NCBI GenBank assembly: GCA_963700635.1
Contig: CAVOYH010000003.1
Location: forward strand, 1,184,001-1,248,000
Direction of reading: 5' to 3'
Length of the DNA: 64,000 nucleotides
Source: an uncultured Bacteroidota bacterium
Lineage (GTDB): Bacteria; Bacteroidota; Ignavibacteria; UBA10030; UBA6906
Shown in pieces: positions 45,188 through 64,000 of this stretch. The notes beneath the pieces are model-generated. The model was given only the letters and a program-made list of their open reading frames with translations. It ran no database searches and was not told the DNA's origin. Within the stretch, counting starts at the first letter, position 1. Each line of letters starts with the position of its first letter. The translations under genes and the position numbers were made by a program.

Positions 45188-45188
45188 A

Positions 45189-45455: not shown

Positions 45456-45462
45456 GCGCTGC

Positions 45463-46479: not shown

Positions 46480-47531
46480 GAGGCGCTCCTCCTGAGGAGG
46501 GGTTTTGTCTGAAGGTCGGCAATCGTGCGCGCGCCTGTAAGGAACATCACGCTCCGGAGTTCCCCGGTCCATTGCTGAATCAATCGCAAAAGGTTTGTTT
46601 TTCCGCCGGCATTAAGCGCGCTCAACATCGGTCGCGCCGAAGATGCAAGATCTGCTCCGAGCGCGATACTTCGCGCAACATCCAATCCGGAACTGATTCC
46701 GCCCGATGCGATGAGGGTGAACGGTGGCGCGCCGGGCCGCAACGACGCAGCGTCCCGCACGGCCGTTGCTGTCGGAATCCCCCAGTCCCAGAACAGCTCC
46801 CGGCGCTCCGGTTTACGCCGGCGGAGTATCTCCACGCCCGCCCAGCTTGTTCCCCCGGCTCCTGCCACATCCACGTACCGGACGCCGGCTTCGAGCAGTT
46901 GCCGGACAACGTCACGGGAAAGCCCCGCGCCCACCTCTTTGACAATCACCGGAATGGGGAGCTCGCGCACCATACGTGTTATCCCATTCAGGACGCCGCG
47001 GAACCGGGGTGTGCCTTCCGGTTGGAGAAGTTCCTGGAGGGGGTTGAGATGGATGGCCATGGCGTCCGCCCTGGTGAGGGCGATGAGGCGCAGCATCGCA
47101 CCGGCGTCTTTCATGGAGGCTACCTCCGCAGCACCGATATTGCCGATGATGGGGATGCCCGGCGCAACGTCGCGTACCACCGAAAACGTCTTGTGGTAGG
47201 TTGTATCTTCGAGGGCCTGTCGTTGACTCCCGACTCCCATGGCGATCCCTGTCTGTTCACACACGGCGGCGAGTTCACGATTGATACGTCCTGCCCCTGC
47301 GTACCCGCCGGTCATACAGGAGACCATGAGGGGAGCTCTGAGCACGTGTCCGAGAAATTCTGTGGAACAATCAATGTCTGCGAAGTCGAGCTCCGGGAGG
47401 GCGTTGTGCACGAACTCCCACTCCTCGAGGCCTGTTGATTTTGACCGAAAAGTCACGTTCTTCTTCAGGACGAGGTCCACATGCTGAGCCTTGCGGGCAA
47501 TGGTACTACGGGGAGGGGATCGTTTGGGCAT
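46476..47531 (-). CDS. fni: Type 2 isopentenyl-diphosphate delta-isomerase
   Basis: RKAQH, MTGG, MGVGSQR, HLNPLQE, VKEVGAG, AGAGGTSW, WGIPT, ASGG. Start set at MPKR. Confidence 0.95.
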   Translation of the reverse strand: MPKRSPPRSTIARKAQHVDLVLKKNVTFRSKSTGLEEWEFVHNALPELDFADIDCSTEFLGHVLRAPLMVSCMTGGYAGAGRINRELAAVCEQTGIAMGVGSQRQALEDTTYHKTFSVVRDVAPGIPIIGNIGAAEVASMKDAGAMLRLIALTRADAMAIHLNPLQELLQPEGTPRFRGVLNGITRMVRELPIPVIVKEVGAGLSRDVVRQLLEAGVRYVDVAGAGGTSWAGVEILRRRKPERRELFWDWGIPTATAVRDAASLRPGAPPFTLIASGGISSGLDVARSIALGADLASSARPMLSALNAGGKTNLLRLIQQWTGELRSVMFLTGARTIADLQTKPLLRRSAS

Positions 47532-47568
47532 GCAGGTCGGTGGCGTTGTGCTCCGGTTGCTTGTCCGC

Positions 47569-47661
47569 AACATACACAATTCGCGAGCGAATTTCAATCC
47601 CGTGATGCGGGTCACAGGGCTCACACAGTGTGTTGCTTCTCTCTCGGGAGTTGTGTACCAT
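47569..47661. promoter_or_regulatory. Divergent sigma70 promoters with a central CRP-like box
   Basis: Minus strand: TTGAAA-N17-TATGTT (47597-47569). Plus strand: TTGCTT-N17-TACCAT (47633-47661). CGTGA-N6-TCACA at 47601-47616. Confidence 0.55.
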
Positions 47662-47690
47662 GTACTGATTTTTGAACCGGAATCCCTTAT

Positions 47691-48668
47691 ATGCATGCGA
47701 TTATACCGGTTGCGGGCATCGGCACGCGCCTCCGACCGCATACTTTTACGCACCCCAAAGTCCTGCTAAACGTTGCCGGGAAACCAATTCTCGCGCACAT
47801 ACTGGACAAGCTGATCGGAGAGGGTGTGACATCGGCGACCATCGTTGTTGGTCACATGAGCGAGAGGATCATCGAATACGTGCAGGCCTCTTATCCGGGA
47901 CTGCCGGTTGACTTTGTGGAACAGGACATGCCGCTTGGTCTCGGCCATGCGATCTACACAGCACGCGGAGCATTAAAGGACAAACCTGTACTCATCATCC
48001 TGGGCGACACGATTTTTGAGGTGGATCTCCGGCCGGTATTAAAGAAGCCCGTCACGGCTCTCGGCGTGAAAACCGTTGAGGATCCGCGCCGGTTCGGGGT
48101 TGCGGAGATGGTTGACGGCACCATCACCCGCCTGATTGAAAAACCCGAACGTCCCACAAGTAACCTGGCCGTGGTCGGGTTGTATCATATCCACAATACC
48201 CCGCTGCTGCGCTCCTGTCTGGAGGAGGTCGTCTCCCGAGATATCCGGACGAAGGGGGAATACCAGCTGACGGATGTTCTGCAGATGATGATTGATCGCG
48301 GCGAGCGGATGGAGACATTTCCCGTTGAGGGGTGGTATGATTGCGGAAAACCTGAGACATTGCTCTCCACGAATCAGGCGTTGCTGGAGAAGCAGTCCAC
48401 CTTCCGCCCCATGGAAAGTGTGGTCATTGCCGAGCCGGTGTTCATCGCGCCCACCGCCGTTCTCTGTAATTGTGTGATCGGCCCGAATACTACCGTTGGG
48501 GACGGCGCGGAAATCAGTGAGGCCGTCATCCGGAACTCCATCATCGGATCCCAGTCCCGCGTAAGCCGTGTGCTTCTGGAGAATTCCATCATCGGCAACG
48601 GGGCTCTGGTCAGAGGGAGTTTTAAGCGGTTTAATGTCGGTGATGCATCAGAACTTGAATTTGAATAA
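47691..48668 (+). CDS. Sugar-phosphate nucleotidyltransferase (long-form RmlA-like, with left-handed beta-helix tail)
   Basis: AGIGTRLRPHT, PK.L..VAGKP, LGDT, EKP, GEYQLTD, WYDCG; hexapeptide C-terminus. Confidence 0.9.
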   Translation: MHAIIPVAGIGTRLRPHTFTHPKVLLNVAGKPILAHILDKLIGEGVTSATIVVGHMSERIIEYVQASYPGLPVDFVEQDMPLGLGHAIYTARGALKDKPVLIILGDTIFEVDLRPVLKKPVTALGVKTVEDPRRFGVAEMVDGTITRLIEKPERPTSNLAVVGLYHIHNTPLLRSCLEEVVSRDIRTKGEYQLTDVLQMMIDRGERMETFPVEGWYDCGKPETLLSTNQALLEKQSTFRPMESVVIAEPVFIAPTAVLCNCVIGPNTTVGDGAEISEAVIRNSIIGSQSRVSRVLLENSIIGNGALVRGSFKRFNVGDASELEFE

Positions 48669-48705
48669 CACAATCATCACGATCCGTTCACAATTGAGGT
48701 AAGTC

Positions 48706-49848
48706 ATGTCTTATCTGTTCACGTCCGAGTCCGTCTCCGAGGGGCACCCTGACAAGGTGTGCGACCAGATATCCGATGCAGTGCTGGACGCAATCCTGGA
48801 TCAAGACAAACGTTCTCGTGTAGCCTGCGAGAGTTTTGTGACGACAGGACTGGCCTTCGTCGGCGGCGAAATTACGACCGATGCCTATATTGAAGTACAG
48901 GACGTGGTCCGCAAGGTGATCCGGGAGATCGGGTATACAAAGGCGGACTATCGCTTCGATGCGGAATCGTGCTCCGTTATCTCGAGCATTCACTCGCAAT
49001 CGGCGGATATTGCCCGGGGTGTGGACACCGGCGGTGCGGGCGATCAGGGTATGATGTTCGGGTACGCTTCGAACGAGACCCCCGAATACATGCCGATGCC
49101 GATCATGTACGCACACAAACTCGTGAAGCGGTTGTCCGACATCCGGAAGAAGGAACTAAAACTGATGCCGTATCTGCGTCCGGATGCCAAGTCGCAGGTT
49201 ACGGTGGAATATCATGGCCGGAAGCCGGTACGTGTGCACACCATCGTGATTTCCACACAGCATGACCCGGGTGTTACCCAGAAGCAGATCCGCGAAGATG
49301 TTATTAAGCACGTAATCCGGAAGGTGCTTCCGGCGGAGATGGTGGACAGGAGCACGGTGATTCATGTCAATCCGACCGGTCGTTTTGAAATCGGCGGACC
49401 GCACGGCGACACGGGTCTCACCGGCAGAAAGATCATTGTGGATACATACGGTGGCCGGGCGCCTCACGGTGGGGGTGCCTTTTCCGGAAAAGACCCCTCA
49501 AAAGTTGACCGGAGCGCGGCGTACGCCACGCGGCACCTTGCCAAGAACCTCGTGGCGTCAGGTCTGGCGGATGAATGTCTGATCCAGGTCGCCTATGCGA
49601 TCGGCGTCGCAGACCCGGTTTCCATTCATGTGAATACATACGGTACGGGCAGGATTCCGGACATGGAGCTTGAAAAAGTTATCATCAAGGAAGTTGACAT
49701 GACGCCGCGCGGCATCATTAAACGCCTTAATCTCCTGCGTCCGATCTACAGAAAGACCGCGGCGTACGGACATTTCGGAAGAAACGAGAAGGATTTCACC
49801 TGGGAGAAACTGGACCTGGTGAATACCATACTCAAGGCGATCAAATAA
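48706..49848 (+). CDS. metK: S-adenosylmethionine synthetase
   Basis: [49 protein letters not shown]. Confidence 0.98.
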
Positions 49849-49894
49849 CGGGAATATCCCGGAACACATTGTTCACAAGAAGGTACAGGATCAC

Positions 49895-51175
49895 ATGGAT
49901 CAGAAAGTTGGCAAATTCAAAGTACGCGATCTGAAAATGGCAAAAGAAGGATCCCGGCTCGTCGAGTGGGCCGAGTCCCGCATGCCCGTCCTCATGGCGC
50001 TTAAGGAAAAGTACAAAAAAACAAAACCCTTCAAGGGCTACCGGATTGCCGGATGTCTGCATGTCACAAAAGAAACTGCGGTTCTGGTGGACACGTTCGT
50101 TGCCGCAGGTGCAGAAGTCAGCTGGAGCGGCTGCAATCCTCTCTCCACGAATGACGCAGTGGCTGCCGCCCTGGCTGCCAGGGGAGTTTCGATATTCGCC
50201 TGGCACGGGATGAACGTCAAGGAGTTCTACTGGTGTATCGATCAAACACTCAAGTTCCATCCCAACCTTACGCTGGATGACGGTGCGGACCTGATCTTCA
50301 CGATCCACAAAGACCATCCCGAATTCGCACAGAAGTATGTCATCGGCGGGACGGAAGAAACCACCACCGGCGTGCACCGGCTCCGCGCGATGGCTGCGGA
50401 TGGTGCGTTGCGATATCCGGTCATTGCTGTGAACGATGCCGAGACAAAATGGGATTTTGACAATGTGTACGGAACGGGCCAGTCGACGCTCGACGGCATC
50501 TTGCGCGCAACGAGCGTCCTGTTCGCGGGGAAGAACGTCGTCGTGGCCGGGTACGGTCATTGCGGACGCGGTGTTGCGCTACGCGCAAAGGGACTCGGTG
50601 CCAATGTGATCGTCACTGAGGTGAAACCTACCGCGGCGCTGAAAGCGACGCTGGAAGGGTACCGGGTGATGAAGATGGATGATGCAGCAAAGATCGGCGA
50701 CATTTTTGTGACCGCTACGGGCGTCAAAGATGTGATTGTCAAGCGGCACTTCCAGTCCATGAAAGACGGTGCGATCGTCTCTAATACGGGCCATTATGAT
50801 TGCGAAATAAACATCCCCGATCTGGCTGCCGTGACCAGGGGAAAGCGGGAGATCCGGGAGAACAATGAAGAGTACGTGACCAGAAACGGCCGGAGGATTT
50901 ATCTTCTTGCGCAGGGGCGGCTGGTGAACCTCGCGGCGGCGGAGGGTCATCCATCGGAAGTCATGGACATGTCGTTTGCGAATCAGTTTATGTCGCAACT
51001 CCGGTTGGCCGAGCTTCATAAGAAGGGTGTGCGCCTGGAGAATACGGTGCACGATATCCCCGAGGAGCAGGACCAGGAAATTGCCCGCGTAAAGCTCGGG
51101 ACGAATGGCATCAAGATTGACAAACTGACTCCTGCGCAAATCAAGTATAACGAAGATTACAGTGCGGGGACCTGA
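49895..51175 (+). CDS. ahcY: S-adenosylhomocysteine hydrolase
   Basis: CLHVTKET, CNPLST, EETTTG, FDNVYG, GYGHCGRG, GRLVNL, GHPSEVMDMSF. Confidence 0.98.
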   Translation: MDQKVGKFKVRDLKMAKEGSRLVEWAESRMPVLMALKEKYKKTKPFKGYRIAGCLHVTKETAVLVDTFVAAGAEVSWSGCNPLSTNDAVAAALAARGVSIFAWHGMNVKEFYWCIDQTLKFHPNLTLDDGADLIFTIHKDHPEFAQKYVIGGTEETTTGVHRLRAMAADGALRYPVIAVNDAETKWDFDNVYGTGQSTLDGILRATSVLFAGKNVVVAGYGHCGRGVALRAKGLGANVIVTEVKPTAALKATLEGYRVMKMDDAAKIGDIFVTATGVKDVIVKRHFQSMKDGAIVSNTGHYDCEINIPDLAAVTRGKREIRENNEEYVTRNGRRIYLLAQGRLVNLAAAEGHPSEVMDMSFANQFMSQLRLAELHKKGVRLENTVHDIPEEQDQEIARVKLGTNGIKIDKLTPAQIKYNEDYSAGT

Positions 51176-51300: not shown

Positions 51301-52737
51301 ATGAAGGCTCTTTCCACGTCTGCGGCTGACTCTCTCCGCGGTCTTCTGGATATCGTTCCCGACATGTGTTTTGTGCTTTCTGCGGACCTGAAGATCCTGG
51401 ACTGCAACCGGCGGGCACGGGCAATGACCGGTCTCCCTGCCCAGCTCGATGGCTCCATTCCTTTTGCCTCTGTGCTCACCTCCGAATCTTCGCGTCCGCC
51501 TTTTGATTCCCTCGATGAAACCACTCGTTCGTGCGAAACCGAAGTCCGCTTCCGGCTGGACGGACGCAGAGACCTGGATGTCCTTGTCTATGTGAACTGC
51601 ATACAGGTGGACGGGGAACGGCAGTACGTGATTTTCGGGAGGGACATCTCGGGTTCAAAACAGCGGGAGCTGGATCTGCTCCGCTTTGCCAATGTGGTCC
51701 ACTATACGGTCAACCCTATCCAGATCACCGATGCACAGGGACGGATGATCTATGTGAATCCCGCCTTTGAACGTACGACCGGGTTCACCAAGGAAGAACT
51801 TATCGGCCGGAACCCCAGCATCATCTCGAGCAAGAAATATGGCAAAGAATTCTGGGAGAAAGTATGGACGAGGATCAGCGCCGGGAAGGTCTGGAACGGC
51901 GAGATTGAAAACCGGCGGAAGGATGGTCAACCGCTCTACACACAGCTGCTGATCTCCCCCATTATGGATGCGGATGGGAATGTGGTAGGTTTTCTCGGTT
52001 CACATCGGGACGTAACCGAGCAGCGCGCACTCGAACAACAGCTCATGCATTCACAGAAAATGGAGAGTATCGGTACCCTGGCGGCAGGGATCGCTCATGA
52101 AGTGGGCAATCCGCTGGCCTCGATTTCCTCAATTGTACAGGTCTTGCAGCGCACCATGAGCGACGAGCTTGCGCGGGACAAACTGGCTCTGGTGCAATCC
52201 CAGGTGCATCGGATCACAAAAATCATCCGTGACCTTGTAGATTTTTCGCGTCCATCCAACTACCAGATTCAGCCCACCGACCTCGTAAAAGTTCTGACTA
52301 ATTCGGTCGAGATTGTGAAGATGGGCAAGAAAGCGAAGGAGGTCACGTTCTATACGCATGTACGCCACCAGGTACCAATCCTCTCTCTCGTGCCGGATCA
52401 GGTCGCCCAGGTCTTCATCAATATTCTTCTGAACGCCGTGGACGCGCTGCAGGGTAAGCGGGGGACCATCACGACGGATTTTGAACGTGATGAGGATGTG
52501 GTGCGGGTGACCATTGCTGATGACGGCGCCGGCATTGCGCCCGAACACCTTTCGAAAATCTTTGAACCGTTCTTTACGACAAAACGTGTGGGTGAAGGAA
52601 CCGGACTCGGGCTCTGGGTCAGCTATGGCATTATCCGGAGCTTCCGCGGTGATATCACGGTCCGCAGTGAACGGGGAGAAGGAACGTCATTCTGTGTCAC
52701 ATTGCCGTTACAACCAAAGGACTATATGCATGGCTGA
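51301..52737 (+). CDS. Cytoplasmic PAS-PAS histidine kinase
   Basis: PAS (YVNPAFERTTGF, NRRKDG), H-box IAHEVGNPL, N-box NILLNA, DDGAGI, FEPFFTTK, GTGLGL. No TM segment. Confidence 0.93.
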   Translation: MKALSTSAADSLRGLLDIVPDMCFVLSADLKILDCNRRARAMTGLPAQLDGSIPFASVLTSESSRPPFDSLDETTRSCETEVRFRLDGRRDLDVLVYVNCIQVDGERQYVIFGRDISGSKQRELDLLRFANVVHYTVNPIQITDAQGRMIYVNPAFERTTGFTKEELIGRNPSIISSKKYGKEFWEKVWTRISAGKVWNGEIENRRKDGQPLYTQLLISPIMDADGNVVGFLGSHRDVTEQRALEQQLMHSQKMESIGTLAAGIAHEVGNPLASISSIVQVLQRTMSDELARDKLALVQSQVHRITKIIRDLVDFSRPSNYQIQPTDLVKVLTNSVEIVKMGKKAKEVTFYTHVRHQVPILSLVPDQVAQVFINILLNAVDALQGKRGTITTDFERDEDVVRVTIADDGAGIAPEHLSKIFEPFFTTKRVGEGTGLGLWVSYGIIRSFRGDITVRSERGEGTSFCVTLPLQPKDYMHG

Positions 52738-54094
52738 GTCGATCCTGATTGTTGACGACGAAGAGATCATTCGTGAGTCTCTTTCCTTTGTGCTTACCAA
52801 GGAGGGATACCGTGTCGTGGATGCGGCGAACGGCAGGATCGCACTGGACATGATCCGGGAGACCTCGTTTGATCTGGTCATCACCGATCTCGAGATGCCG
52901 GAGATGAAAGGGATCGAGCTTCTGGAACACGTTACGCAGTTAAGCCCGGAGACGTTTGTCGTTATCATCACTGCCTATGGATCCATTGATACAGCGATTG
53001 CCGCCCTGCGTAAGGGTGCCGTGGACTATGTACTCAAACCGGTGGAGTTTGACGAGCTGCTCGTAAAGATCTCCCGGTTGCTGCAGACCCGCCGGATCAG
53101 CCTGGAAAACAAGTTGCTGCGGGGGGAACTCCATCGTCAATACACGTTTGATCAGATCATCGGACAGAGTCCCGCGATGCAGCGCGTGTTCGATACCATC
53201 CGTAAAGTGGCCGTCACCGACGGCACTGTGCTCATCAGCGGGAAAAGCGGGACCGGCAAGGAATTGGTTGCACGCGCAATCCACTTTAACAGCAAGCGAT
53301 CCGCGGGGCCGTTTGTTGCGGTCAACTGCGGTGCCATCGTGGAAAATCTCTTTGAAAGTGAACTCTTCGGCCATAAGCGGGGCGCGTTTACCGGGGCAGC
53401 GATGGACAAGGAGGGATTCTTCAAGGCAGCCGACGGGGGAACGTTGTTCCTGGATGAAATAAGCGAAATCCCCATGCACCTGCAGGTAAAACTCCTGCGC
53501 GCAATCGAACTCAAGGAGGTCACTGCGGTAGGCACCTCCATGCCGGTGCCGATGGATGTTCGGATCATCTCTTCAACGAACAAAAATCTGGCGAAGGAAG
53601 TCGAGGAGGGACGTTACCGGGAAGATCTCTTCTATCGTCTTAATATCGTAGAAATACCTCTCCCCTCGCTGACGGAACGCGTCGATGACATTCCCCTTCT
53701 GGTTCAACATTTTGTCGCCAGATACGCCAAGGAGATGAGCAAGGATGTGCGAGGGGTGGACAATGAAGTGATGAAATGTCTGGTGGGACACTCCTGGAAG
53801 GGGGAAATCCGGGAACTCGAGAACATTATCGAGCGCGCGGTGATTTTTGCCGAAGGGAATATTGTGACCAAAAAGGAATTGCCCGCGTTTTTTGATCAAC
53901 GAACTGATGCGGTGTACTCGTTCGACGCCCGGCGTTCAATGAAGGAGGCGGTGGACGACTTCGAACGGCAGTATATTGCACATGTGCTCCGGACAAACCA
54001 GTTCAACAAGGAAGTCGCCGCAAAAGCCTTGAAGATCAGCCTTTCTTCTCTCTACCGGAAGATCGAGGAGTTAAATATCCCTTCGCAGGGTTAG
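52730..54094 (+). CDS. NtrC-family sigma54-dependent response regulator
   Basis: Receiver (IVDDE, ITDLEMP), GKSGTGKE, intact GAFTGA, FLDEI, HTH. Overlaps the kinase end. Confidence 0.94.
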   Translation: MAESILIVDDEEIIRESLSFVLTKEGYRVVDAANGRIALDMIRETSFDLVITDLEMPEMKGIELLEHVTQLSPETFVVIITAYGSIDTAIAALRKGAVDYVLKPVEFDELLVKISRLLQTRRISLENKLLRGELHRQYTFDQIIGQSPAMQRVFDTIRKVAVTDGTVLISGKSGTGKELVARAIHFNSKRSAGPFVAVNCGAIVENLFESELFGHKRGAFTGAAMDKEGFFKAADGGTLFLDEISEIPMHLQVKLLRAIELKEVTAVGTSMPVPMDVRIISSTNKNLAKEVEEGRYREDLFYRLNIVEIPLPSLTERVDDIPLLVQHFVARYAKEMSKDVRGVDNEVMKCLVGHSWKGEIRELENIIERAVIFAEGNIVTKKELPAFFDQRTDAVYSFDARRSMKEAVDDFERQYIAHVLRTNQFNKEVAAKALKISLSSLYRKIEELNIPSQG

Positions 54095-54207: not shown

Positions 54208-54223
54208 TGGCACAACTCTTGAA
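54208..54223 (+). promoter_or_regulatory. sigma54-type promoter upstream of the Usp gene
   Basis: TGGCAC-N5-TTGAA (-12 is GA instead of GC). Confidence 0.6.
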
Positions 54224-54744: not shown

Positions 54745-55170
54745 ATGCAACAAGACACCAAACATAAAAATACGGAAACCACTTCTGAAGTGGAAGGCGG
54801 AGACGGGAAAAAGACGATACTGCTCTACAGTCCCGACCTGAACTTCTGTTTTAGCCTGTCAATGCTTTTCCAGGATCGTTATAATGTAATCACGACAACA
54901 AATCTTGGTATGCTGGACAAGCTGGTTGCTGACTATTCAGCAGACCTCGTGCTGGTTGATGCAGTTCCTTCCGAGAAACTCATCGAACGGCTGGGAGCAC
55001 TGCGCGGCTTGAACAATGCCCTCCCGATCATCCTCCTCTATGTGTACAATGCCAGGGATGTGGACCTGGATCGTACCATTCGTGAACATGTTGATTCAGT
55101 ATTTTACAAACCGTTAGAGATTCTCTCAATCTCCAAACGTGTTGAAGAACTGCTCTCCCGGACATCTTGA
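54745..55170 (+). CDS. Atypical stand-alone receiver-domain protein
   Basis: Receiver-like pattern ILLY...DLVLVD...LPIILL...FYKPL, but the first acidic pair is replaced by SPD. Confidence 0.65.
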   Translation: MQQDTKHKNTETTSEVEGGDGKKTILLYSPDLNFCFSLSMLFQDRYNVITTTNLGMLDKLVADYSADLVLVDAVPSEKLIERLGALRGLNNALPIILLYVYNARDVDLDRTIREHVDSVFYKPLEILSISKRVEELLSRTS

Positions 55171-55301: not shown

Positions 55302-55317
55302 TGGCATGTTGATTGAC
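55302..55317 (+). promoter_or_regulatory. sigma54-type promoter of the cytochrome cluster
   Basis: TGGCAT-N5-TTGAC, the same -12 variant as at 54208. Confidence 0.6.
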
Positions 55318-55359: not shown

Positions 55360-57492
55360 GTGAAACGGTTTCTCTTTATACTACTGGGAGTCTGGATATT
55401 TTCTACTCCCCGCCTCGCTGCGCAGTCCGATACGGAATGCCTCAGTTGTCACTCTGATGCATCGATCAGTATGGAACGTAAAGGGGTGACGGTTTCCCTC
55501 GCTGTGGACGGGAAGCAGTTCGCCTCTTCGGCACATGGAAAGCTGGGATGTGTGCAGTGCCATTCCGGATTCCGTCCTTTTGAACTCCCGCACGCGCGGA
55601 AAATCAAGGCGGTCGACTGTTCGCAGTGTCATCAGAGCGACCACCTCAACACCTATGCGCAGAGCGTTCACGGTGGGGCAGCGAAGGAGAAGGGTGCGGC
55701 TGCCTGCGTGGACTGCCATACAACACACGCGATTCGCAAAGTCTCAGACCTGGAGCCCCAGCAGCGGAAAGCGTTTGCGGAACGGATGTGTTCGAAATGC
55801 CATGGGAGCGTAAGTGTACGGTACGTGCAATCGGACCATGGGATCGCACTCGCAAACGGAGTAAAAGGTGCGCCGAGTTGTATTGATTGCCATGGTGAGC
55901 ACGGCGTACAATCCTCGGCAACGACAGAGTCAACCACGCACCGCGCGCATCAGGCGCAGATGTGCGAAAGTTGTCATCTTGACAACCCGGAAGTACGCGC
56001 CCGCGTGGGACCCTCGGCTGGGTTCATCCGCAGCTACGAGCAAAGTGTCCACGGGCAGGCAATCGCACACGGCAATGATGCTGCTGCCACCTGCACCGAT
56101 TGCCACACGAGCCATGATATGCGGAAGGGCTCGAATCCGGGGTCGACGGTGTCCAAGAAGAACATTGCGGCCACGTGCGCAGCCTGTCATGGCGATATCA
56201 AAGAGCAGTATGACGCGAGTATTCATGGCATAGCGCTTTCAAAGGGAATTGGCGCTTCGCCGACCTGCACCGACTGCCATGGCGAACATAACATCCTCTC
56301 GCCCAAAGACGCACGCTCCCCGGTTGCCGCCGGCAACGTCTCCGCACAAGTGTGTTCCCCCTGCCATGAATCCGTCCGACTGACGGAAAAATATGGTCTT
56401 GCCTCCGACCGGTTCCGGAGCTTCGAAGACAGTTTCCATGGTCTTGCCACGAGGGCGGGATCTGTGGAAGTGGCAAATTGCGCCAGCTGTCATGGCGTGC
56501 ACGATATCAAGCCGTCAACGGATTCCACTTCGCGGATTTTTCCCGCAAATCTTATACAGACATGCGGGGATTGCCATCCGGGTGCCAACGAAAATTTTAC
56601 CCGCGGCTCGGTGCACGTGATTGCGACGGAAAGCGGCGAGCAAATCCTGTACTTTGTATCCAACGGGTATCTGGCTCTGATTTTCGTCATCATCGGAGGC
56701 ATGCTCTTTCACAACATCCTGGACTTCCTGAGGAAATCCCGGAAGCAGCTTCAGTATCGCAGGGGTGATCTCCCCCGTAAACATGTTGCGCACCGGCTCT
56801 ACGTACGTATGACGCTGAACGAGCGAATACAACACGGCACACTGGTGGTCAGTTTTATCGCGCTCGTCGTCACCGGGTTTGCGCTCCGGTATCCGGACGC
56901 CTGGTGGGTCGCGCCGTTGCGCAGCCTGAGTCCCTTGATGTTTGAACTGCGCGGTATCCTCCATCGGGTTGCGGCGGTTGTGATGGTGGGGGCGAGTCTG
57001 TACCATGTGTACTATCTGTTCTTCGTGACGCGGGGAAAAGAACTCTTGAAGGATCTTCTCCCGCGCAGGCAGGACATTACCGATGCCGTCGCAGTGTTAC
57101 GCTACAATCTGGGGTTCTCACCGGAGAAACCCAGATTCGGCCGGTTCAGCTACATTGAAAAGAGCGAATACTGGGCGCTGGTATGGGGAACCATCGTCAT
57201 GGGAGTCACGGGAGTGATTCTCTGGTTCGACAACCTCTTTCTTGGCCTGCTGACCAAACTCTGGTGGGATGTTGCACGAACGGTGCATTATTACGAGGCA
57301 TGGCTTGCGACCCTCGCAATTATTGTCTGGCATTTCTATTTTGTTATTTTTAACCCGGATACCTACCCCATCAACCTGGCGTTCTGGAAAGGAACGCTGA
57401 CGGAAGAGGAGATGGAGGAAGAACATCCGTTGGAACTGGAGAAACTACAGGAGCAGCAGCGGCTTCTTCCGGCGGATGCAGAGAGTGTGTAA
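55360..57492 (+). CDS. 13-heme cytochrome c fused to FdnI/HydC-type cytochrome b (CbcL-like quinol oxidoreductase)
   Basis: Signal peptide from GTG 55360; 13 CxxCH counted; TM domain with RIQH, LHR, RFSYIEKSEYWA, VHYYEA, WHFY. Confidence 0.88.
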   Translation: MKRFLFILLGVWIFSTPRLAAQSDTECLSCHSDASISMERKGVTVSLAVDGKQFASSAHGKLGCVQCHSGFRPFELPHARKIKAVDCSQCHQSDHLNTYAQSVHGGAAKEKGAAACVDCHTTHAIRKVSDLEPQQRKAFAERMCSKCHGSVSVRYVQSDHGIALANGVKGAPSCIDCHGEHGVQSSATTESTTHRAHQAQMCESCHLDNPEVRARVGPSAGFIRSYEQSVHGQAIAHGNDAAATCTDCHTSHDMRKGSNPGSTVSKKNIAATCAACHGDIKEQYDASIHGIALSKGIGASPTCTDCHGEHNILSPKDARSPVAAGNVSAQVCSPCHESVRLTEKYGLASDRFRSFEDSFHGLATRAGSVEVANCASCHGVHDIKPSTDSTSRIFPANLIQTCGDCHPGANENFTRGSVHVIATESGEQILYFVSNGYLALIFVIIGGMLFHNILDFLRKSRKQLQYRRGDLPRKHVAHRLYVRMTLNERIQHGTLVVSFIALVVTGFALRYPDAWWVAPLRSLSPLMFELRGILHRVAAVVMVGASLYHVYYLFFVTRGKELLKDLLPRRQDITDAVAVLRYNLGFSPEKPRFGRFSYIEKSEYWALVWGTIVMGVTGVILWFDNLFLGLLTKLWWDVARTVHYYEAWLATLAIIVWHFYFVIFNPDTYPINLAFWKGTLTEEEMEEEHPLELEKLQEQQRLLPADAESV

Positions 57493-57496
57493 CCTC

Positions 57497-59533
57497 ATGA
57501 AAAGAGAACGGACAGACATGCACCGGGGAGGATGGTTGTGGCGGTGGAGTGTTATGCTCTGTCTGGCGCTTCTCTGCCTTCTCCCCGGCACGGTGCAGGC
57601 ACAGGATGCGGAAGAGTGTCTCCTCTGCCACAGCGATCGGGATCTGCGCGGGACGCGGAAAGGGAGATCGATCAGCGTCTTTGTGGACGAGAAGAAGTTT
57701 GGTTCTTCCGTGCATGGGACCCTCGCGTGTGTTACCTGTCATGCCGATCTTTCGGGGAAAGAAATGCCGCATGCGGACGATGTGGCGCCGGCGGTCTGCG
57801 GTGACTGTCACGACAGGGTGCAAGCTCTCCACACGGGATCTCTTCACGGCAAGGCGGTGAAGAGCGGAGATCCCCTTGCGCCACGCTGTGCGGATTGTCA
57901 TGGGTCACACGGAATTCTTCCTGCAAAGGATCCACGGTCACCTGTTGCCCCGATGAAAATTCCCTTTCTTTGCGGGAAGTGCCACACGGAAGGGGCTCCG
58001 GTTCAACGGCAACGGGTAATCCACGCAGATCATATCGTCGAAAACTACTCTGAAAGTATTCACGGCGAAGGACTTCTCCGCAAAGGGCTTGTCGTCTCGG
58101 CAACGTGTGCCTCCTGCCACACCGCACACGCGATTCTTCCTCACACCGATCCCGCATCATCGATAGCGAGGCGCAATATCGCGGCCACCTGCACGCAATG
58201 TCATGCGGAAATTGAGATGGTGCACCGGAAGGTGATCAAGGGCGAGTTGTGGGAACGGGAAGCCCATGTCCTGCCTGCCTGCGTGGATTGCCACCAGCCA
58301 CACAAGGTGCGCAAGGTGTTTTACGATCAGGGTATGGCCGATAAGGACTGCATGCGCTGTCACGCCAAGCCCGATCTTGTTGCATCCAGAGACCGGCGGT
58401 CAATGTATGTCGCGCAGGATCATCTGGGAAATTCGAAGCACGCACGGACGTCATGCAGCCAGTGCCATACGGGTGTGAATGCAGCCAAGGTGCGGCCGTG
58501 CGAGACCATCACACAGAAAGTTGATTGTGCATCATGCCACGCCGAGGTAGCGCAGCAGTATGCGGGCAGCATTCACGGTAAGCTGGTGGCGCGTCAGGAT
58601 CCCAATGGCCCGACATGCAAAGAATGCCACGGAACACATGCGGTGCTTGGCAAACTCCAGCCCGAGTCGCCCAGCTTTCCCACAAATGTCCCGACACTGT
58701 GTGCCCGCTGTCATCGCGAAGGTGAGAAAGCCGCGGTTCGGTATACAGGGGATCAAACGAACATCGTGGAGCATTACGGCGAAAGTATTCATGGTAGGGG
58801 CCTGACACGAAGCGGGTTGACGGTGACCGCCATGTGCACCAACTGTCACACCGCACACGGCGTGCTCCCGCGGAAAGATCCCCAGTCCAGCATCAACCCG
58901 AAAAATGTCCCTGCAACATGCGGACGGTGTCACCACGGGATCGAAGACCAATTCCGTCACAGTGTGCATGCAAGTATCGACACCACCTCAGGGAAGAAGC
59001 TGCCGGTCTGTGATGATTGCCACAGCGCCCACACGATCCGCCGGGCTGACGAAGAGGGATTCAAGCTCACGATCATGAACCAGTGCGGCAGGTGCCATGA
59101 GGATATCGCCAAAACGTACTTTGATACGTACCATGGGAAGGTGTCACAGCTCGGGTACACCAAAACTGCAAAATGTTACGATTGCCATGGCGCGCATGAT
59201 ATCCTTCCGGTTACGGATACCCGCTCACATCTCAGCAGAGAAAATGTCGTCGCAACATGTCAGAAGTGCCATCCCGGCGCAAACCGGAGGTTCGCGGGAT
59301 ATCTCACCCATGCCACGCACCATGATCCCGACAAGTACCCGTTCCTGTTCTGGACTTTCTGGGGGATGACCGGGTTGTTAGTGGTGACATTTGTCGTCAG
59401 CGGCTTGCACACACTCCTCTGGTTGCCACGGGCGATCCAGATGCGAAGGGCGCGGACACGGCGGGAAAAAGCCGTCGAGGCGAAACCGAAGGCGGATGAA
59501 GTAGAAAAGGACAATGAACCACCAGCACAATAA
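57497..59533 (+). CDS. 19-heme cytochrome c with C-terminal membrane anchor (CbcL-like periplasmic module)
   Basis: Signal peptide ending VQAQ; 19 CxxCH counted; C-terminal HATH...YPFLFWTFWGMTGLL...LHTLLWLPR. Start 57497 or 57518. Confidence 0.9.
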   Translation: MKRERTDMHRGGWLWRWSVMLCLALLCLLPGTVQAQDAEECLLCHSDRDLRGTRKGRSISVFVDEKKFGSSVHGTLACVTCHADLSGKEMPHADDVAPAVCGDCHDRVQALHTGSLHGKAVKSGDPLAPRCADCHGSHGILPAKDPRSPVAPMKIPFLCGKCHTEGAPVQRQRVIHADHIVENYSESIHGEGLLRKGLVVSATCASCHTAHAILPHTDPASSIARRNIAATCTQCHAEIEMVHRKVIKGELWEREAHVLPACVDCHQPHKVRKVFYDQGMADKDCMRCHAKPDLVASRDRRSMYVAQDHLGNSKHARTSCSQCHTGVNAAKVRPCETITQKVDCASCHAEVAQQYAGSIHGKLVARQDPNGPTCKECHGTHAVLGKLQPESPSFPTNVPTLCARCHREGEKAAVRYTGDQTNIVEHYGESIHGRGLTRSGLTVTAMCTNCHTAHGVLPRKDPQSSINPKNVPATCGRCHHGIEDQFRHSVHASIDTTSGKKLPVCDDCHSAHTIRRADEEGFKLTIMNQCGRCHEDIAKTYFDTYHGKVSQLGYTKTAKCYDCHGAHDILPVTDTRSHLSRENVVATCQKCHPGANRRFAGYLTHATHHDPDKYPFLFWTFWGMTGLLVVTFVVSGLHTLLWLPRAIQMRRARTRREKAVEAKPKADEVEKDNEPPAQ

Positions 59534-60365
59534 ACCCGACGAGCGTCAGTACCTGCGGTTCACGCGGCTGAACCGCCTACTCCACGCCACCATGATCGTC
59601 TGCTTCATCAGCCTGGCGTTGACGGGCATGACGCTCAAATTCTCCTATACAGGCTGGGCCGCGTTTCTGTCGAGACTCTTCGGCGGGTACGAAACGGCGG
59701 GCTACGTTCACCGTCTCGCCGCAGTCGTGATGGTAGGAATCTTCATCGTGCATCTTGTGGACCTCGTCCGTCGCAAGCGGCGAGGACATACGAGCTGGAA
59801 AAGTATGCTCACCGGGCCGGACACCATGATGCCCACCAGGCGGGATCTTACCGACGCCCGGGACTCGCTACGGTGGTTCCTGGGCATGGGGCCGCGTCCG
59901 AATTACGGGAGATGGACATACTGGGAGAAATTTGACTATTTTGCAGTGTTCTGGGGGATGGTTGTCATCGGATCCACCGGGTTTACGCTCTGGTTCCCGG
60001 AGTTCTTCACATTGGTGTTTCCGGGTTGGATGATTAATGTGGCGGCAATCATTCACAGTGATGAAGCCCTGCTTGCGACAGGGTTTATCTTCACCGTACA
60101 TTTCTTCAATACCCATCTCCGTCCCGAAAAGTTTCCCATGGATATGGTGATTTTTACCGGACGAATGCCGGTTGAGGAGCTTGCGGAGGATAAGCCGGAG
60201 GAGTATGCAAAACAGGTTGCAGCTGGGACGCTGGAAAACAACCTCGTGGAACCGTATCAGCCTATCGTGATTCGTGCGATCCGGACATTTGCCTGGATAG
60301 CGCTGGGGATCGGATTCAGCATCGTGGTCTGGATCATTTATGCCATGGTATTCTCATATCGGTAA
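59514..60365 (+). CDS. Diheme cytochrome b subunit (CbcL TM-domain-like)
   Basis: RLLH, VHR, GRWTYWEKFDYFAVFWG, IHSDEALLA, VHFFNTHLRPEKFPMD. Overlaps the 19-heme gene. Confidence 0.88.
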   Translation: MNHQHNKPDERQYLRFTRLNRLLHATMIVCFISLALTGMTLKFSYTGWAAFLSRLFGGYETAGYVHRLAAVVMVGIFIVHLVDLVRRKRRGHTSWKSMLTGPDTMMPTRRDLTDARDSLRWFLGMGPRPNYGRWTYWEKFDYFAVFWGMVVIGSTGFTLWFPEFFTLVFPGWMINVAAIIHSDEALLATGFIFTVHFFNTHLRPEKFPMDMVIFTGRMPVEELAEDKPEEYAKQVAAGTLENNLVEPYQPIVIRAIRTFAWIALGIGFSIVVWIIYAMVFSYR

Positions 60366-60476
60366 CCGGATTGTTCTTGAGGGCTTAATGGCCGGCCCTC
60401 AGCCATGGCAAAAAGTGGCAAATTGTTTTTGTTTCCCGTACATTACAGTATCATTACACCTTAGAAGGAGGAGTTT

Positions 60477-61016
60477 ATGAGAATCGCTCTGACGGTCGTC
60501 ACAGTCGTCGTTGCTGTCGTGTTCCTTACCGGCACGGTCGCTGCTGAGAACAAGTTTGTGGGTACGAAGATGTGTGCGATGTGCCATAAGGCAAAGGACA
60601 AAGGCGAGGCCTCTGTCATCTGGCAGAAGAGCACTCACGCAAATGCCTTCAAGACGCTGGAAGGCGAACAGGCAAAGAAGATTGCGAAGGAGAAGGGTTT
60701 GTCGAAACCGCCGGCCGAATCTCCCGAATGCCTCAAATGCCATGTCACCGGTGGTGGAGTTGCAAAAAATGTCGACAAGTCATTCGATATGAAAGAAGGT
60801 GTGACGTGCGAAGCATGCCATGGCGCAGCGTCGGGATACAAGACCCTCCATGCAAAGGCAGAGAACAAGGCGAAGGCAGTCGCGGCAGGCCTTATCACGG
60901 GTGAAGCGTCCGCGAAGTTGTGTGTAACCTGCCACAACGAAGAGAGTCCGACATTCAAGGGATTCAAGTACGACGAGTACTGGTCCAAGATCGAGCACAA
61001 ACTTCCCAAGAAATAG
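60477..61016 (+). CDS. Periplasmic tetraheme cytochrome c (c554-like)
   Basis: Signal peptide; FVG..MCAMCH, WQKSTHA, CLKCHVTG, GVTCEACHG, CVTCH; Lys-rich; strong SD AAGGAGG. Confidence 0.88.
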   Translation: MRIALTVVTVVVAVVFLTGTVAAENKFVGTKMCAMCHKAKDKGEASVIWQKSTHANAFKTLEGEQAKKIAKEKGLSKPPAESPECLKCHVTGGGVAKNVDKSFDMKEGVTCEACHGAASGYKTLHAKAENKAKAVAAGLITGEASAKLCVTCHNEESPTFKGFKYDEYWSKIEHKLPKK

Positions 61017-61029
61017 GAACATTTGTACG

Positions 61030-61066
61030 ACGGCGGGGGATGAAGGAACTACCTCCGCCGTTTTTT
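61030..61066 (+). terminator. Intrinsic terminator between the tetraheme and ImcH-like genes
   Basis: ACGGCGGGG/CTCCGCCGT stem plus T6. Confidence 0.7.
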
Positions 61067-61088
61067 GTCACTCACTCCGACGTCGTGT

Positions 61089-62588
61089 ATGTCGAACCGA
61101 AAACTTCCTGACATCTTCTACAATCCGCTGAGCATCGGCGGCGCGGCGCTTGCCAGCGTTTCGCTGGTGACGATCGTTTTTCTCATTCTTGTTGAATGGT
61201 TGCAGCACGATTCTCCTCCCTACATCGGCATTATCTCGTACGTGATTCTTCCGCTCCCGCTGGTCATGGGACTCCTGCTGATTCCTGCCGGCGCGTGGCG
61301 CGAACGCTGGCGAATACGCAGAGGTCAGCCGGCCAGCCGGCTTGCATTTTCTGTGGACCTGGCGGTGCCGCGCCAGCAGGCTGCCCTGACGATCTTCAGC
61401 AGTGTATCCGTTATCATACTCCTACTTACGGCGTACGGGAGTTACCGGACGTTTGAATGGACAGAATCTGTGGAGTTCTGCGGTACCATCTGTCATGAAG
61501 CGATGGAACCCGAGCATACGGCCTACCAGCATTCGCCGCATGCACGCGTAAAATGTGTTGACTGTCATGTGGGCTCCGGGGCCGGGTGGTATGTCCGCTC
61601 GAAACTTTCCGGCGCCTATCAGGTGTACGCGGTGATCGCCAATGTATTCCCGAGACCGATTCCTACCCCGATCAAAGACCTCCGTCCGGCACAGGAAACC
61701 TGCGAGCAGTGCCATTGGCCCTCACACTTTTCTGCCGAGAAAAAATACGTCAATACGTACTTCAAGTCCGATGAGGCCAACACACGCTGGACGATTGCGT
61801 TGTTGATGAAGATCGGCGGCGGCAGTGAAGAACGCGGCCCGTCAGGCGGAATCCACTGGCACATGAACATTGACAACGAAGTGACCTATGCGGCGACAGA
61901 TTCTCAACGTCAGGTGATTCCGCTGATCAGCATCAGGAACCGACGTACCGGTGTTGTTTCTGAGTTCATCGCACAGGATGCCATTGATGACATCGAGACA
62001 CTGCGCACCCTCCCCAGGGCCACGATGGATTGTATTGATTGCCACAACAGACCTTCACACATCTACCGGCCCCCTGCCCGTATCATTGACCAAAGTCTTG
62101 CGCATGGCCGGATCAGCTCCGATCTTCCCCGGATACGGGAACAGGCGATGGAGCTGCTGAAGTTTGAGTACACGAGCACCCAGGCGGCCGTCGACAGCAT
62201 TGACATGCTCCTGAAAGAATTTTATGCCAGGGAGTACCCGGCAATCACAGAATCACAACCCGCATTGATTGCCGCCGCAAGCAAGGAGCTTCAGGCTCAA
62301 TTCCGTCTCAACTTCTTCCCGCGCATGAAGGTGCGGTGGAGCGCATATCCCGACAACATCGGACATATGACCGATCTTGGTTGTTTCCGATGCCATGATG
62401 GAAATCACCGCACTGCTGACGGACGTGTACTCTCAAAGGATTGCAACATCTGTCACACAATTTTGTATCAGGGAACGGCACCGAATCCACAGACACTGTC
62501 TGTTGCAGGTCTTCCCTTCGAACATCCCGAAGATATCGGCGACATCTGGAATGATATGAACTGCGTTGAGTGCCACTCCGGTCGGTGA
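61089..62588 (+). CDS. 7-heme NapC/NirT-related inner-membrane cytochrome (ImcH-like)
   Basis: Three N-terminal TM segments; CGTICH plus six CxxCH; CVDCHVGSGA.WYVRSKLSG, LRPAQETCEQCHWP, GIHWH, MDCIDCHNRPSH. Confidence 0.85.
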   Translation: MSNRKLPDIFYNPLSIGGAALASVSLVTIVFLILVEWLQHDSPPYIGIISYVILPLPLVMGLLLIPAGAWRERWRIRRGQPASRLAFSVDLAVPRQQAALTIFSSVSVIILLLTAYGSYRTFEWTESVEFCGTICHEAMEPEHTAYQHSPHARVKCVDCHVGSGAGWYVRSKLSGAYQVYAVIANVFPRPIPTPIKDLRPAQETCEQCHWPSHFSAEKKYVNTYFKSDEANTRWTIALLMKIGGGSEERGPSGGIHWHMNIDNEVTYAATDSQRQVIPLISIRNRRTGVVSEFIAQDAIDDIETLRTLPRATMDCIDCHNRPSHIYRPPARIIDQSLAHGRISSDLPRIREQAMELLKFEYTSTQAAVDSIDMLLKEFYAREYPAITESQPALIAAASKELQAQFRLNFFPRMKVRWSAYPDNIGHMTDLGCFRCHDGNHRTADGRVLSKDCNICHTILYQGTAPNPQTLSVAGLPFEHPEDIGDIWNDMNCVECHSGR

Positions 62589-62631
62589 GGGAACGCAGAT
62601 CATGTACAGGCGGCAAGGAAAGGAATATGGA

Positions 62632-63939
62632 ATGAACGGATCTCGTCTTCTCCCGCTCGCACTACTTCTGACGTGGAGTGCGGCGGCTCCAGCACAATAT
62701 GTCTCGGGCCGCCTCTCGACGGCATTCTACGCGTGGGAACAATTTGATACGGTTGGCACATCCCAGCAATACCTCCGTGCCTACCAGACGGCGCAGTTAA
62801 GCATCGCCCACGGTGATGTATCACTGACAACATTTCTCCAGGGAACCACAAACCTGGCCGGCACGTTCGGCGCTTCGGGACGCGTTCGCTTCTACAATCT
62901 CTACCTGAGTTGGACGAACATCGGTAAGGTTGTCGACCTTCACCTGGGACGGCAGGGAATCTTTGCCGGGGCGGGGGTAGGCACCATCGACGGACTCTCC
63001 GCAAAAGCGCGGCTGTTTCAGAACAGAGTGACCCTGACCGGATACGGGGGTGCAACGGTTGGTCCTGAGTTTACCGGAGTGCGCGAAAACATCGGGGATA
63101 ACTATTTTTACGGAGGCCAGGTGGTTACTTCCCTCCTTCCGGGTACGCGCATCGGGTTAAGCTACATGAATCGTCACGAAGAGCGGGACCCCTACTGGAC
63201 CCTTCGCGCCCGGGACACCTCGTATGCGCCCGTGCCCTACTATGTGGCCAACGATTCTCCGGCGGAAGAACTCGGGAGCGCAGATGCCCGGTATGAGTAC
63301 GGTGACCGTTTCTCCGTGTACGGGCGTTATGACTATGATTTCCTGAATGAGCGCACGTCACGGGCTCAGGGTGGTGCGCGGGTCCAGGTAACTCCAAAAC
63401 TTTCCGTCAACGCCGATTATATTCACCGGGTGCCCCGTGTGTTCTACAATTCCATATTCTCGGCGTTTGTCACCAATGCCGTCAACGAATTTGAGGGCGG
63501 TCTCGAGTATGGTTTCACGCCGCTGCTTCGGCTGTTCGGACGGATGGCATGGGTTTCGTATACCGACGAAAAAAGTCACCGCTGGACGCTCGGACTGAAC
63601 ACAGGATATGCCACGGTGGTGTATGCGGGGAGCGACGGATATGCCGGCGAGTTGAGTTCGTTCAGTGTGCAGGGATCCTATCCGCTCTTCGGCCGCACGG
63701 TCGTTCCGACAGCAGGAATCTCGTATGCCTCGTACCGGCTCAGCAGGGAAAGTACGCGAGACAATGCCTTGAGTCTCCTGCTGGGCGCGATGGTCCGGCC
63801 CACGTCCACCTTCTCCTGTGACGTTCAGGGGCAATGGTTGACGAACAAGCTGATGCAGCGTGATCTTCGCGTTCAAGTGCGGTTGAGTTACTGGTTTGCG
63901 CAACGGCTCTCATCCAGCAAAGAGGAGGGGACACCATGA
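62632..63939 (+). CDS. Probable outer-membrane beta-barrel (porin of a porin-cytochrome conduit)
   Basis: Signal peptide ending APAQ; no Cys/heme motifs; Tyr/Gly-rich alternating strands; LHLGRQ; ends ...VQVRLSYWF plus a short tail. Confidence 0.7.
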   Translation: MNGSRLLPLALLLTWSAAAPAQYVSGRLSTAFYAWEQFDTVGTSQQYLRAYQTAQLSIAHGDVSLTTFLQGTTNLAGTFGASGRVRFYNLYLSWTNIGKVVDLHLGRQGIFAGAGVGTIDGLSAKARLFQNRVTLTGYGGATVGPEFTGVRENIGDNYFYGGQVVTSLLPGTRIGLSYMNRHEERDPYWTLRARDTSYAPVPYYVANDSPAEELGSADARYEYGDRFSVYGRYDYDFLNERTSRAQGGARVQVTPKLSVNADYIHRVPRVFYNSIFSAFVTNAVNEFEGGLEYGFTPLLRLFGRMAWVSYTDEKSHRWTLGLNTGYATVVYAGSDGYAGELSSFSVQGSYPLFGRTVVPTAGISYASYRLSRESTRDNALSLLLGAMVRPTSTFSCDVQGQWLTNKLMQRDLRVQVRLSYWFAQRLSSSKEEGTP

Positions 63940-64000
63940 TCCGCCGCTATTTTTTCTTCCTCGCGGTCGTTGTCGTGGCGTTGTTGACCGCCGTCGCGTA
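63936..64000 (+). CDS. Start of an exported protein (truncated by window end)
   Basis: ATGA overlap with the barrel stop; SD GGAGG; MIRRYFFFLAVVVVALLTAVA signal-like sequence. Confidence 0.65.
   Translation, partial: MIRRYFFFLAVVVVALLTAVA

Follow-up and report, generated by a model that had tools for sequence, protein, structure and literature searches.

This analysis concerns a gene cluster for multihaem c-type cytochromes in a 64,000-nucleotide stretch of DNA (hereafter the window) from an uncultured Bacteroidota bacterium of the class Ignavibacteria. The window corresponds to C3:1184001-1248000 of genome G000, and positions beyond its end were extended along the contig. Its last part, 55360-64000, is occupied by seven co-oriented open reading frames (ORFs) on the + strand. 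An earlier note on the window had read them as a sigma-54-controlled conduit for extracellular electron transfer that joins CbcL-like and ImcH-like quinol oxidases to a porin. The genes of the cluster, including those that reach past the window, are as follows.

55360..57492, + strand: CB13, fused 13-haem c/dihaem-b cytochrome, CbcL-like paralogue by its predicted features (710 aa, 13 CxxCH, PF01292 over the cut-off)
57518..59533, + strand: C19, 19-haem cytochrome c, putative first half of a split CbcL-family protein (671 aa, 19 CxxCH)
59514..60365, + strand: cytochrome b subunit, putative second half of the split protein (283 aa, PF01292, cytochrome b561-type, five helices)
60477..61016, + strand: c4, exported tetrahaem cytochrome, c554-like, candidate periplasmic shuttle (179 aa, 4 CxxCH, PF13435)
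61089..62588, + strand: putative ImcH-family heptahaem menaquinol oxidase (499 aa, six CxxCH and one CX3CH, PF03264, NapC/NirT)
62632..63939, + strand: barrel, putative porin of a porin-cytochrome unit (435 aa, 22 strands in the model)
63936-65141 (C3:1247936-1249141), + strand: P14, 14-haem periplasmic cytochrome (401 aa, 14 CxxCH)
65134-66549 (C3:1249134-1250549), + strand: lipoprotein cytochrome (lipobox LGG-C, 11 CX2CH and two CX4CH, TIGR01904 over the cut-off)

In gene order from CB13 to the barrel, the ORFs carry 13, 19, 0, 4, 6+1 (one CX3CH) and 0 haem motifs. The count of 43 given in the earlier note is right when CX3CH is included (42 are canonical), and both cytochrome b modules that it had recognized match PF01292 (55360-57492 and 59514-60365). 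The further cytochromes that it had expected past 64000 are there, namely the 14-haem P14 and the lipoprotein with 13 motifs, and the operon total with these genes is 70 c-haem motifs. The distances between successive genes, from the CB13 gene to the lipoprotein gene, are 25, -20, 111, ~70, 43, -4 and -8 bases. The six cytochromes have 67 CxxCH motifs in 2932 residues, or ~23 per 1000. Since the genome-wide density (all ORFs of at least 100 aa) is 0.11 per 1000, the clustering of haem motifs is not due to chance. NCBIfam matches of the window proteins encoded in 55360-64000 are all under the cut-off. No soluble terminal reductase was found 3' of the barrel gene: the genes past 64000 are the two multihaem cytochromes and then ccmF, which rules out a downstream reductase of the NrfA or molybdoenzyme type. 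The genes after ccmF look metabolic, as judged from their translations.

Overall, the cluster is intact, real and well conserved. The proposed anatomy (an ImcH-type protein, two CbcL-type modules, a small periplasmic cytochrome and a barrel) is borne out, and the expected lineage agrees with the labels of the relatives (Bacteroidota or Ignavibacteriota). All the parts are members of known families, and the new element is only the co-location of three membrane entry points with an outer-membrane pore.

Inner-membrane modules

Judged from its sequence, the seven-haem protein can be placed with ImcH, on the grounds of its motif spacing and its key residues. Hydropathy places three helices at residues 17-35, 47-65 and 99-117, compared with 13-35, 45-67 and 100-122 in ImcH of G. 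sulfurreducens (GSU3259; PMC6295460). The CX3CH motif adjoins the membrane domain and is followed by six CX2CH motifs at the family spacing (25, 49, 110, 117, 20 and 40; for GSU3259, the supplement rows of PMC6295460 give 24, 49, 106, 117, 20 and 38). Pimenta 2023 named residues H137, Q179, E127, K173 and Y188 of ImcH (10.1101/2023.05.03.539133). When residues are numbered from base 61086, one codon before the ATG, and matched by spacing rather than by alignment to GSU3259, the window protein has H137, Q179, E127, K173 and F188. H137, Q179 and K173 are invariant in 14 of 14 aligned rows, all of which also have either E or D at 127. The protein thus resembles GSU3259 in the three N-terminal helices, the CX3CH plus six CX2CH motifs, the His/Gln site of haem 1, and the Lys and Glu of the proposed quinol site; it differs in having Phe in place of Tyr188 and a gene located directly before that of a porin. 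In the survey of Zhong & Shi 2018 (PMC6295460), imcH had no mtrAB/mtoAB next to it. The structural model has three long helices and a poor haem domain (mean pLDDT 61.6), because of which it was left out of the fold search. A sequence search of the PDB with the ImcH-family protein gave no match.

The other two modules are of the CbcL type. CB13 has conserved His residues at 451, 492, 535, 549, 643 and 658, and, by its predicted features, it is a CbcL-like paralogue without the full CbcL layout. The second module consists of C19, which has a signal peptide and a C-terminal membrane helix with a His, and the cytochrome b subunit (His 24, 66, 80, 181 and 196). Jointly, they supply six helices and the five-His pattern of CbcL. 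Instead of the single polypeptide of CbcL/MtrH/MtoC, they are encoded by two overlapping ORFs. The haem spacing of C19 equals that of OGU58019 at 17 of 18 intervals; the latter is a 19-haem Ignavibacteria protein listed by Zhong & Shi 2018 as a CbcL/MtrH/MtoC homolog (PMC6295460). Moreover, three fused proteins of 922-949 aa match both halves: their N-terminal parts share 64-73% identity with C19, and their C-terminal parts 72-75% with the b subunit. Longer homologs of C19 are mostly fused (106 of the best 120 with 19 motifs). Because the split recurs in seven of eight orthologous loci, a frameshift artefact can be ruled out, and the pair appears to be naturally split.

Compared with the CbcL (GSU0274)/MtrH/MtoC family, both modules share a multihaem c domain and the His pattern of a HydC/FdnI-type b domain. 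Unlike CbcL with its 9 haems (family range 3-23), they have 13 and 19; the 19-haem module is divided after the first helix, and CB13 has five helices. The likeness to CbcL claimed earlier therefore holds for both b/c modules as regards the His pattern, and fails for the fused 13-haem protein as regards the sixth helix. The split pair also recalls CbcBA (GSU0593-0594)/BccR, which has separate b and c subunits, a C-terminal anchor on c, a sigma-54 promoter and a neighbouring activator (Joshi 2021, 10.1101/2021.04.15.440034). However, CbcB has four helices and three His residues and CbcA seven haems. The five-helix b subunit, the CbcL His pattern and the 19 haems rule out CbcBA and point to a split CbcL-type protein. 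In a tree of 24 b-domains, taken from 14 chosen loci and the window, whose midpoint root serves only for drawing, the two window paralogues are set apart by a long branch with full support; CB13 and C19/b are therefore old paralogues.

The small c4 protein has only three His residues outside its four motifs. One haem may therefore be five-coordinate or Met-ligated, as in cytochrome c554.

Outer-membrane unit and its spread in the class

The barrel has no Pfam or NCBIfam match. We modelled it with AlphaFold2, using an alignment of 113 of the 120 listed proteins, query included. The model is all-beta (pLDDT 86.5) and has no plug domain; 22 membrane strands were counted, with one short hairpin excluded. 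Fold matches (Foldseek, VIA-align) are outer-membrane barrels, including TonB-dependent transporters and ushers. The top match is a TonB-dependent barrel (Z 20.2, rmsd 4.8, 373 aligned), and MtrB is also matched (Z 15.8, rmsd 5.8, 363 aligned). The assignment of 62632-63939 as a beta-barrel is thereby confirmed. A common barrel fold by itself demonstrates no function. No Geobacter Pcc-type porin is among the fold matches listed, which is no sign of a new fold, and a PDB sequence search with the barrel profile gave no credible match to a solved porin. The best matches in the ESM Atlas are Bacteroidota/Ignavibacteriota clusters only. With P14 and CB13, the PDB sequence search returned only partial cytochrome matches.

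The start of the P14 gene overlaps the stop of the barrel gene by four bases, and the N-terminus of P14 has a hydrophobic segment. A complex of barrel residues 22-425 and P14 residues 30-401 was modelled from our own 61-row alignments with haems omitted. It scored 0.77, and the best of three controls scored 0.00. Among complexes of known structure, 116 of 157 score at least this high, as do 2 of 215 mismatched pairs; this calibration is only rough for own alignments. The runs share at least 80% of contacts, and the pLDDT of the partners is at least 74. The barrel contacts P14 through alternating residues of strands around the whole protein, for which reason we read the contact face as the lumen. 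P14 contributes mainly residues 154-381, which span haem motifs 6-13. P14 is thus predicted to sit inside the barrel, and the lipoprotein cytochrome would be located at the outer face.

The locus therefore combines a porin-like barrel gene with an adjoining periplasmic and an adjoining lipoprotein multihaem cytochrome, as in porin-cytochrome (Pcc) units. It departs from MtrCAB/MtoAB in having a 435 aa barrel and a 14-haem partner, and the decahaem model matches far under its cut-off. The closest known arrangement is the pcc cluster of I. album JCM 16511, with consecutive tags IALB_1840-1837: a periplasmic cytochrome, a porin, a second periplasmic cytochrome of 400 aa with 14 haems, and an outer-membrane cytochrome whose motifs are atypical (Shi 2014, PMC4245776). 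Here, c4, the porin, P14 (401 aa, 14 haems) and the lipoprotein with two CX4CH motifs match it in order, size and haem number. Unlike in I. album, ImcH separates c4 from the porin, with two CbcL-type modules farther upstream; none of these is named for I. album in the available part of PMC4245776, and I. album has no row among the 'Ignavibacteri' entries of the ImcH table of Zhong & Shi in the part of PMC6295460 at hand. Such porin-cytochrome clusters are also reported in further Ignavibacteria (Arbour 2020, Fortney 2018). The earlier note had regarded such a chain as little characterised in this lineage and overstated the novelty of the finding, as the I. album unit dates from 2014 (PMC4245776), and ImcH and CbcL homologs, 19-haem CbcL-family proteins among them, were listed in Ignavibacteriae in 2018 (PMC6295460).

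Quinol oxidases of several families beside a porin-cytochrome conduit are known elsewhere too. A cluster of Rhodoferax ferrireducens consists of mtrH, two cymA and mtrABC (PMC6295460), and six decahaem-type clusters have ImcH- or NapC-like genes (PMC13264449). In contrast to the 435 aa barrel and 14-haem partner, these have an MtrB-type porin (649 residues for MtrB in 6r2q_B) and a decahaem cytochrome, with CymA in place of ImcH in Rhodoferax. In D. acetexigens, ImcH and CbcL have consecutive accessions, suggesting adjacency (PMC12133095). In the open-access literature, figures and bioRxiv supplements aside, we found no description of an operon that unites ImcH and two CbcL-type modules with a porin unit of the Ignavibacteria type; neighbours of this kind may be present in the cluster figures of Zhong & Shi and Arbour. 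The accessible parts of PMC5492636 and PMC11748539 contain nothing on this cluster.

Among 151 genomes of the class, profile searches matched the barrel in 97 (one weakly) and ImcH in 77. Sixty-two porin loci were compared: 60 from the 97 genomes, selected for long contigs and family spread and fetched with ~12.5 kb upstream and 6 kb downstream, and two of six earlier relatives (the other four comprised three short ones and one duplicate). P14 lies 3' of the porin in all 62 loci and has 14 haems in 47. A lipoprotein homolog is likewise present in 62 of 62; a crude lipobox-like pattern was found in 42 of 57 homologs. c4 is present in 59 loci, a b-module in 40, ccmF in 20 and ImcH in 13, with two b-modules plus ImcH in six. 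In G055, for which a longer stretch was fetched, the full upstream set is present ~12 kb from the porin.

These data bear on the possibility that the barrel is an unrelated transport porin and that the cluster encodes an entirely periplasmic chain with a soluble reductase at its end. Such a reading could appeal to the missing family match and to the general nature of the fold matches (TonB-dependent transporters, ushers). Yet no reductase follows the cluster, the barrel model has no plug domain, the barrel is coupled to P14 in every one of the 62 loci, and the model of their complex passes. We regard this alternative as very improbable.

Several variants of the unit were observed along the way. 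In G102 (C4:1056495-1057777) and G143 (C1:2282036-2283314), the porin match is in two pieces, probably owing to frameshifts or assembly errors. The porin open frame measures ~790-840 codons stop-to-stop in seven genomes of family f9, and P14 has 11 haems in four loci of this family (L046, L057, L093, L094). In L070, L071, L073, L079, L095 and L096, a b/9-haem c/b cassette lies 5' of the porin, followed by at least one 17-20-haem cytochrome; the fetched stretch of these six loci contains no ImcH.

Regulation and operon structure

The regulatory genes and sites around the cluster, together with ccmF, are the following.

51301..52737, + strand: cytoplasmic PAS-PAS histidine kinase, candidate sensor (Pfam PAS, HisKA, HATPase_c)
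52730..54094, + strand: candidate NtrC-type sigma-54 activator (PF00072 receiver, PF00158 AAA+, PF02954 HTH_8)
54208..54222, + strand: sigma-54-type site TGGCAC-N5-TTGA before usp, also in L004, L039 and L099
54253..54717, + strand: universal stress protein (usp; PF00582)
54745..55170, + strand: degenerate single-domain receiver-like protein (weak match to the OmpR model, E 1.5e-4)
55302..55316, + strand: sigma-54-type site TGGCAT-N5-TTGA before cb13, 58 bases 5' of the first cytochrome gene, kept in L004, L039 and L099
61029..61068, + strand: hairpin with T-run 3' of c4 (-19.7 kcal/mol, z -3.3)
~C3:1250552-1250592, + strand: terminator-like hairpin with T-run after the lipoprotein gene (z -6.0)
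66753-68978 (C3:1250753-1252978), + strand: CcmF/NrfE-family gene with its own sigma-54-type site at 66703

The pattern TGGCAY-N5-TTGA, which also precedes ccmF (66703), occurs at 35 sites genome-wide versus 13 expected from base composition, and 17 of the 35 are just before a gene versus 12% of random positions (crude gene calls). The textbook TTGC form is near expectation (20 versus 17). This lineage may therefore prefer TTGA at -12. A loose scan of the window allowing two mismatches returned 72 sites against 66 expected, i.e. chance level, and we based the sigma-54 assignment only on the stricter genome-wide pattern and on conservation. A further sigma-54-type site at 51106 was discounted as chance, because it falls inside the gene upstream and neither L039 nor L099 showed it. 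In more distant loci, the sites are patchy. The proposed sigma-54 control is nevertheless supported at the sequence level: conserved -24/-12 sites, one of them before the first gene, coexist with rpoN in the genome and with a neighbouring activator, which would drive the cb13 promoter. A homolog of the activator is found in 26 of the 62 related loci. The receiver-like protein is 27% identical to the activator receiver over 104 aa.

The kinase, which is kept ahead of the cluster in L039 and L099, would be the cluster sensor by its position. It lacks a clear membrane helix. Of its two PAS domains, we take the second to resemble the NifL-type redox sensors that bind flavin, a likeness that would suit control of the operon by redox state. 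In seven other loci (L056, L058, L063, L065, L067, L069, L092), the kinase next to the cluster differs from that of the window in having a CxxCH motif and two membrane helices, and is probably a haem-c sensor kinase.

Within the operon, the hairpin 3' of c4 could possibly be a partial terminator or a stabilising hairpin; strong hairpins also occur 3' of c4 in L004, L039 and L006. A simple terminator scan listed neither this hairpin nor the one 3' of the lipoprotein gene. A hairpin pair after the b subunit was rejected, being no better than shuffles (z -0.64).

Both ImcH and porin matches were listed for 73 genomes. In this order, the two are at most 15 kb apart in 12 of 15 genomes, versus 3 of the 58 others; in seven further genomes they share a contig at distances of 21 kb to 3 Mb. 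These counts are a description rather than a test, because fragmented assemblies hide links and kin are not independent. The distance of ImcH from the porin outside this order is what might be expected if the inner-membrane modules and c4 were a general periplasmic hub or capacitor for several sinks (nitrite reductase, peroxidases, octahaem enzymes), with the porin as one outlet and the paralogues adding capacity. The upstream module set varies widely, 22 of the 62 loci having no b-module in the fetched stretch; the genome encodes other multihaem proteins; and the hairpin after c4 could raise the level of c4 and of the b/c modules over that of the porin genes. Against a hub stand the tight gene spacing with one closing terminator and the presence of c4 beside the porin in nearly all loci. 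The idea is in any case compatible with an outward conduit and chiefly denies the 'multi-potential' part. We consider it unlikely as the main explanation.

Other multihaem loci of G000 are C4:221751-224534, C4:638178-639683, C3:1707695-1709902, C6:111161-113353, C4:883687-885105, C3:1539089-1540702 and C3:295925-297806. They hold a pair of proteins with 20 and 13 haems, a further protein with 13, three octahaem proteins, of which two are preceded by sigma-54-type sites, a 6+1-haem protein and a pair named NrfH/NrfA-like from size and motif count. In addition, G000:C3:1120592-1122094 is a 500 aa ORF with 5+2 haem motifs. Upstream of the regulatory genes, 43424-51175 of the window (- strand) encodes housekeeping functions, as read from translations: PTS enzyme I, HPr, polyprenyl synthase, type 2 IPP isomerase, a sugar-phosphate nucleotidyltransferase, MetK and AhcY.

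Direction of electron flow

Taken together, the cluster is probably a sigma-54-controlled operon for outward electron transfer from menaquinol to the cell surface. Menaquinol would be oxidised at three alternative inner-membrane enzymes, namely ImcH, with a NapC/NrfH-type site on the periplasmic side, CB13 and C19/b. From there, electrons would reach P14 either via the tetrahaem c4 or straight along the long haem chains. P14, threaded through the 22-strand barrel, would pass them on to the lipoprotein cytochrome on the outer side, and the latter to extracellular acceptors such as Fe(III), humics, electrodes or partner cells. The neighbouring CcmF would aid maturation of the roughly 70 haems. 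We infer the direction of transfer, the partners of c4, the exposure of the lipoprotein at the surface, the activator of the promoter, the acceptor and any sharing of tasks according to redox potential. In the genome, which is 97% complete, we found a menaquinone synthesis family, two haem-copper oxidases, NarG and matches to the NiFe-hydrogenase family, but neither RuBisCO nor CdhC; this inventory fits a versatile heterotroph that exports electrons. M. roseus, which has ImcH, uses Fe(III) (PMC6295460; Kadnikov 2013).

The same conduit could be run mainly in the opposite direction, as in Mto-like systems: the surface cytochrome would take electrons from Fe(II), reduced humics or partner cells, and the CbcL/MtoC-type modules would reduce quinone for oxygen or nitrate respiration. 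MtoC homologs of CbcL are found in Fe(II) oxidisers (PMC6295460), and the two haem-copper oxidases and NarG are possible sinks. However, ImcH has so far been implicated in quinol oxidation only (PMC6295460), and no pcc cluster in an Fe(II) oxidiser was known according to the available part of Shi 2014 (PMC4245776). The lack of matches to RuBisCO and CdhC, the two carbon-fixation markers searched for, also speaks against import. On balance, predominant import seems quite unlikely.

Several points weigh against outward transfer as we propose it. CbcL/MtrH/MtoC proteins are found in reducers and oxidisers alike, with no distinguishing feature described in the part of PMC6295460 consulted. I. album, with the same outer-membrane trio, is reported to be unable to use Fe(III)/Mn(IV) oxides (PMC4245776). 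Position 188 of ImcH is Tyr in 10 of 14 rows and Phe in four, the window protein included. Hydropathy gives CB13 five membrane helices, its C-terminus falling before the sixth helix of CbcL. The barrel-P14 complex was folded without haems and with our own alignments, and its passing score may reflect likeness, because a solved MtrAB complex (another family) exists. Finally, the likeness to IALB_1837-1840, OmbB, GSU0274 and GSU3259 was drawn without direct alignment, the I. album match being one of order, length and haem number.

A bolder version of the outward scheme builds on what is known of Geobacter. There, ImcH is tied to high-potential acceptors (Levar 2014, PMC4251993) and releases protons to the periplasm, and CbcL (GSU0274) gives lower yield and undergoes a redox-dependent shut-off above -0.1 V (V205, F525; 10.1101/2022.08.31.506072). 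Since both are constitutively expressed (10.1101/2021.04.15.440034), co-transcription is compatible with switching at the protein level. One order of uncultured Ignavibacteria-type bacteria might have brought its porin-cytochrome conduit together with ImcH and two CbcL-type paralogues, a five-helix one and a split one. With one sigma-54 promoter for all of them, the three oxidases would be produced at the same time, and redox potential would select among them at the protein level. In this view, the addition of ImcH would enable the porin unit found across the class to serve Fe(III) respiration, in keeping with Fe(III) use by M. roseus, which has ImcH, and the lack of such use in I. album. The operon as a whole would then be a multi-potential conduit, self-contained and transplantable, whose 22-strand barrel belongs to a family without a solved structure. 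We put this forward tentatively and consider it less likely than not.

As the parts are known, a specialist would find the cluster useful rather than surprising. If outward transfer is true, respiration of extracellular acceptors is open to a widespread group of uncultured heterotrophs. The porin family, present in 97 of 151 class genomes and without a Pfam or NCBIfam match, would then be a marker overlooked by standard annotation. A single operon with ImcH, two CbcL-type paralogues and a conduit would also let the generality of potential-dependent switching between quinol oxidases be tested outside Geobacter.

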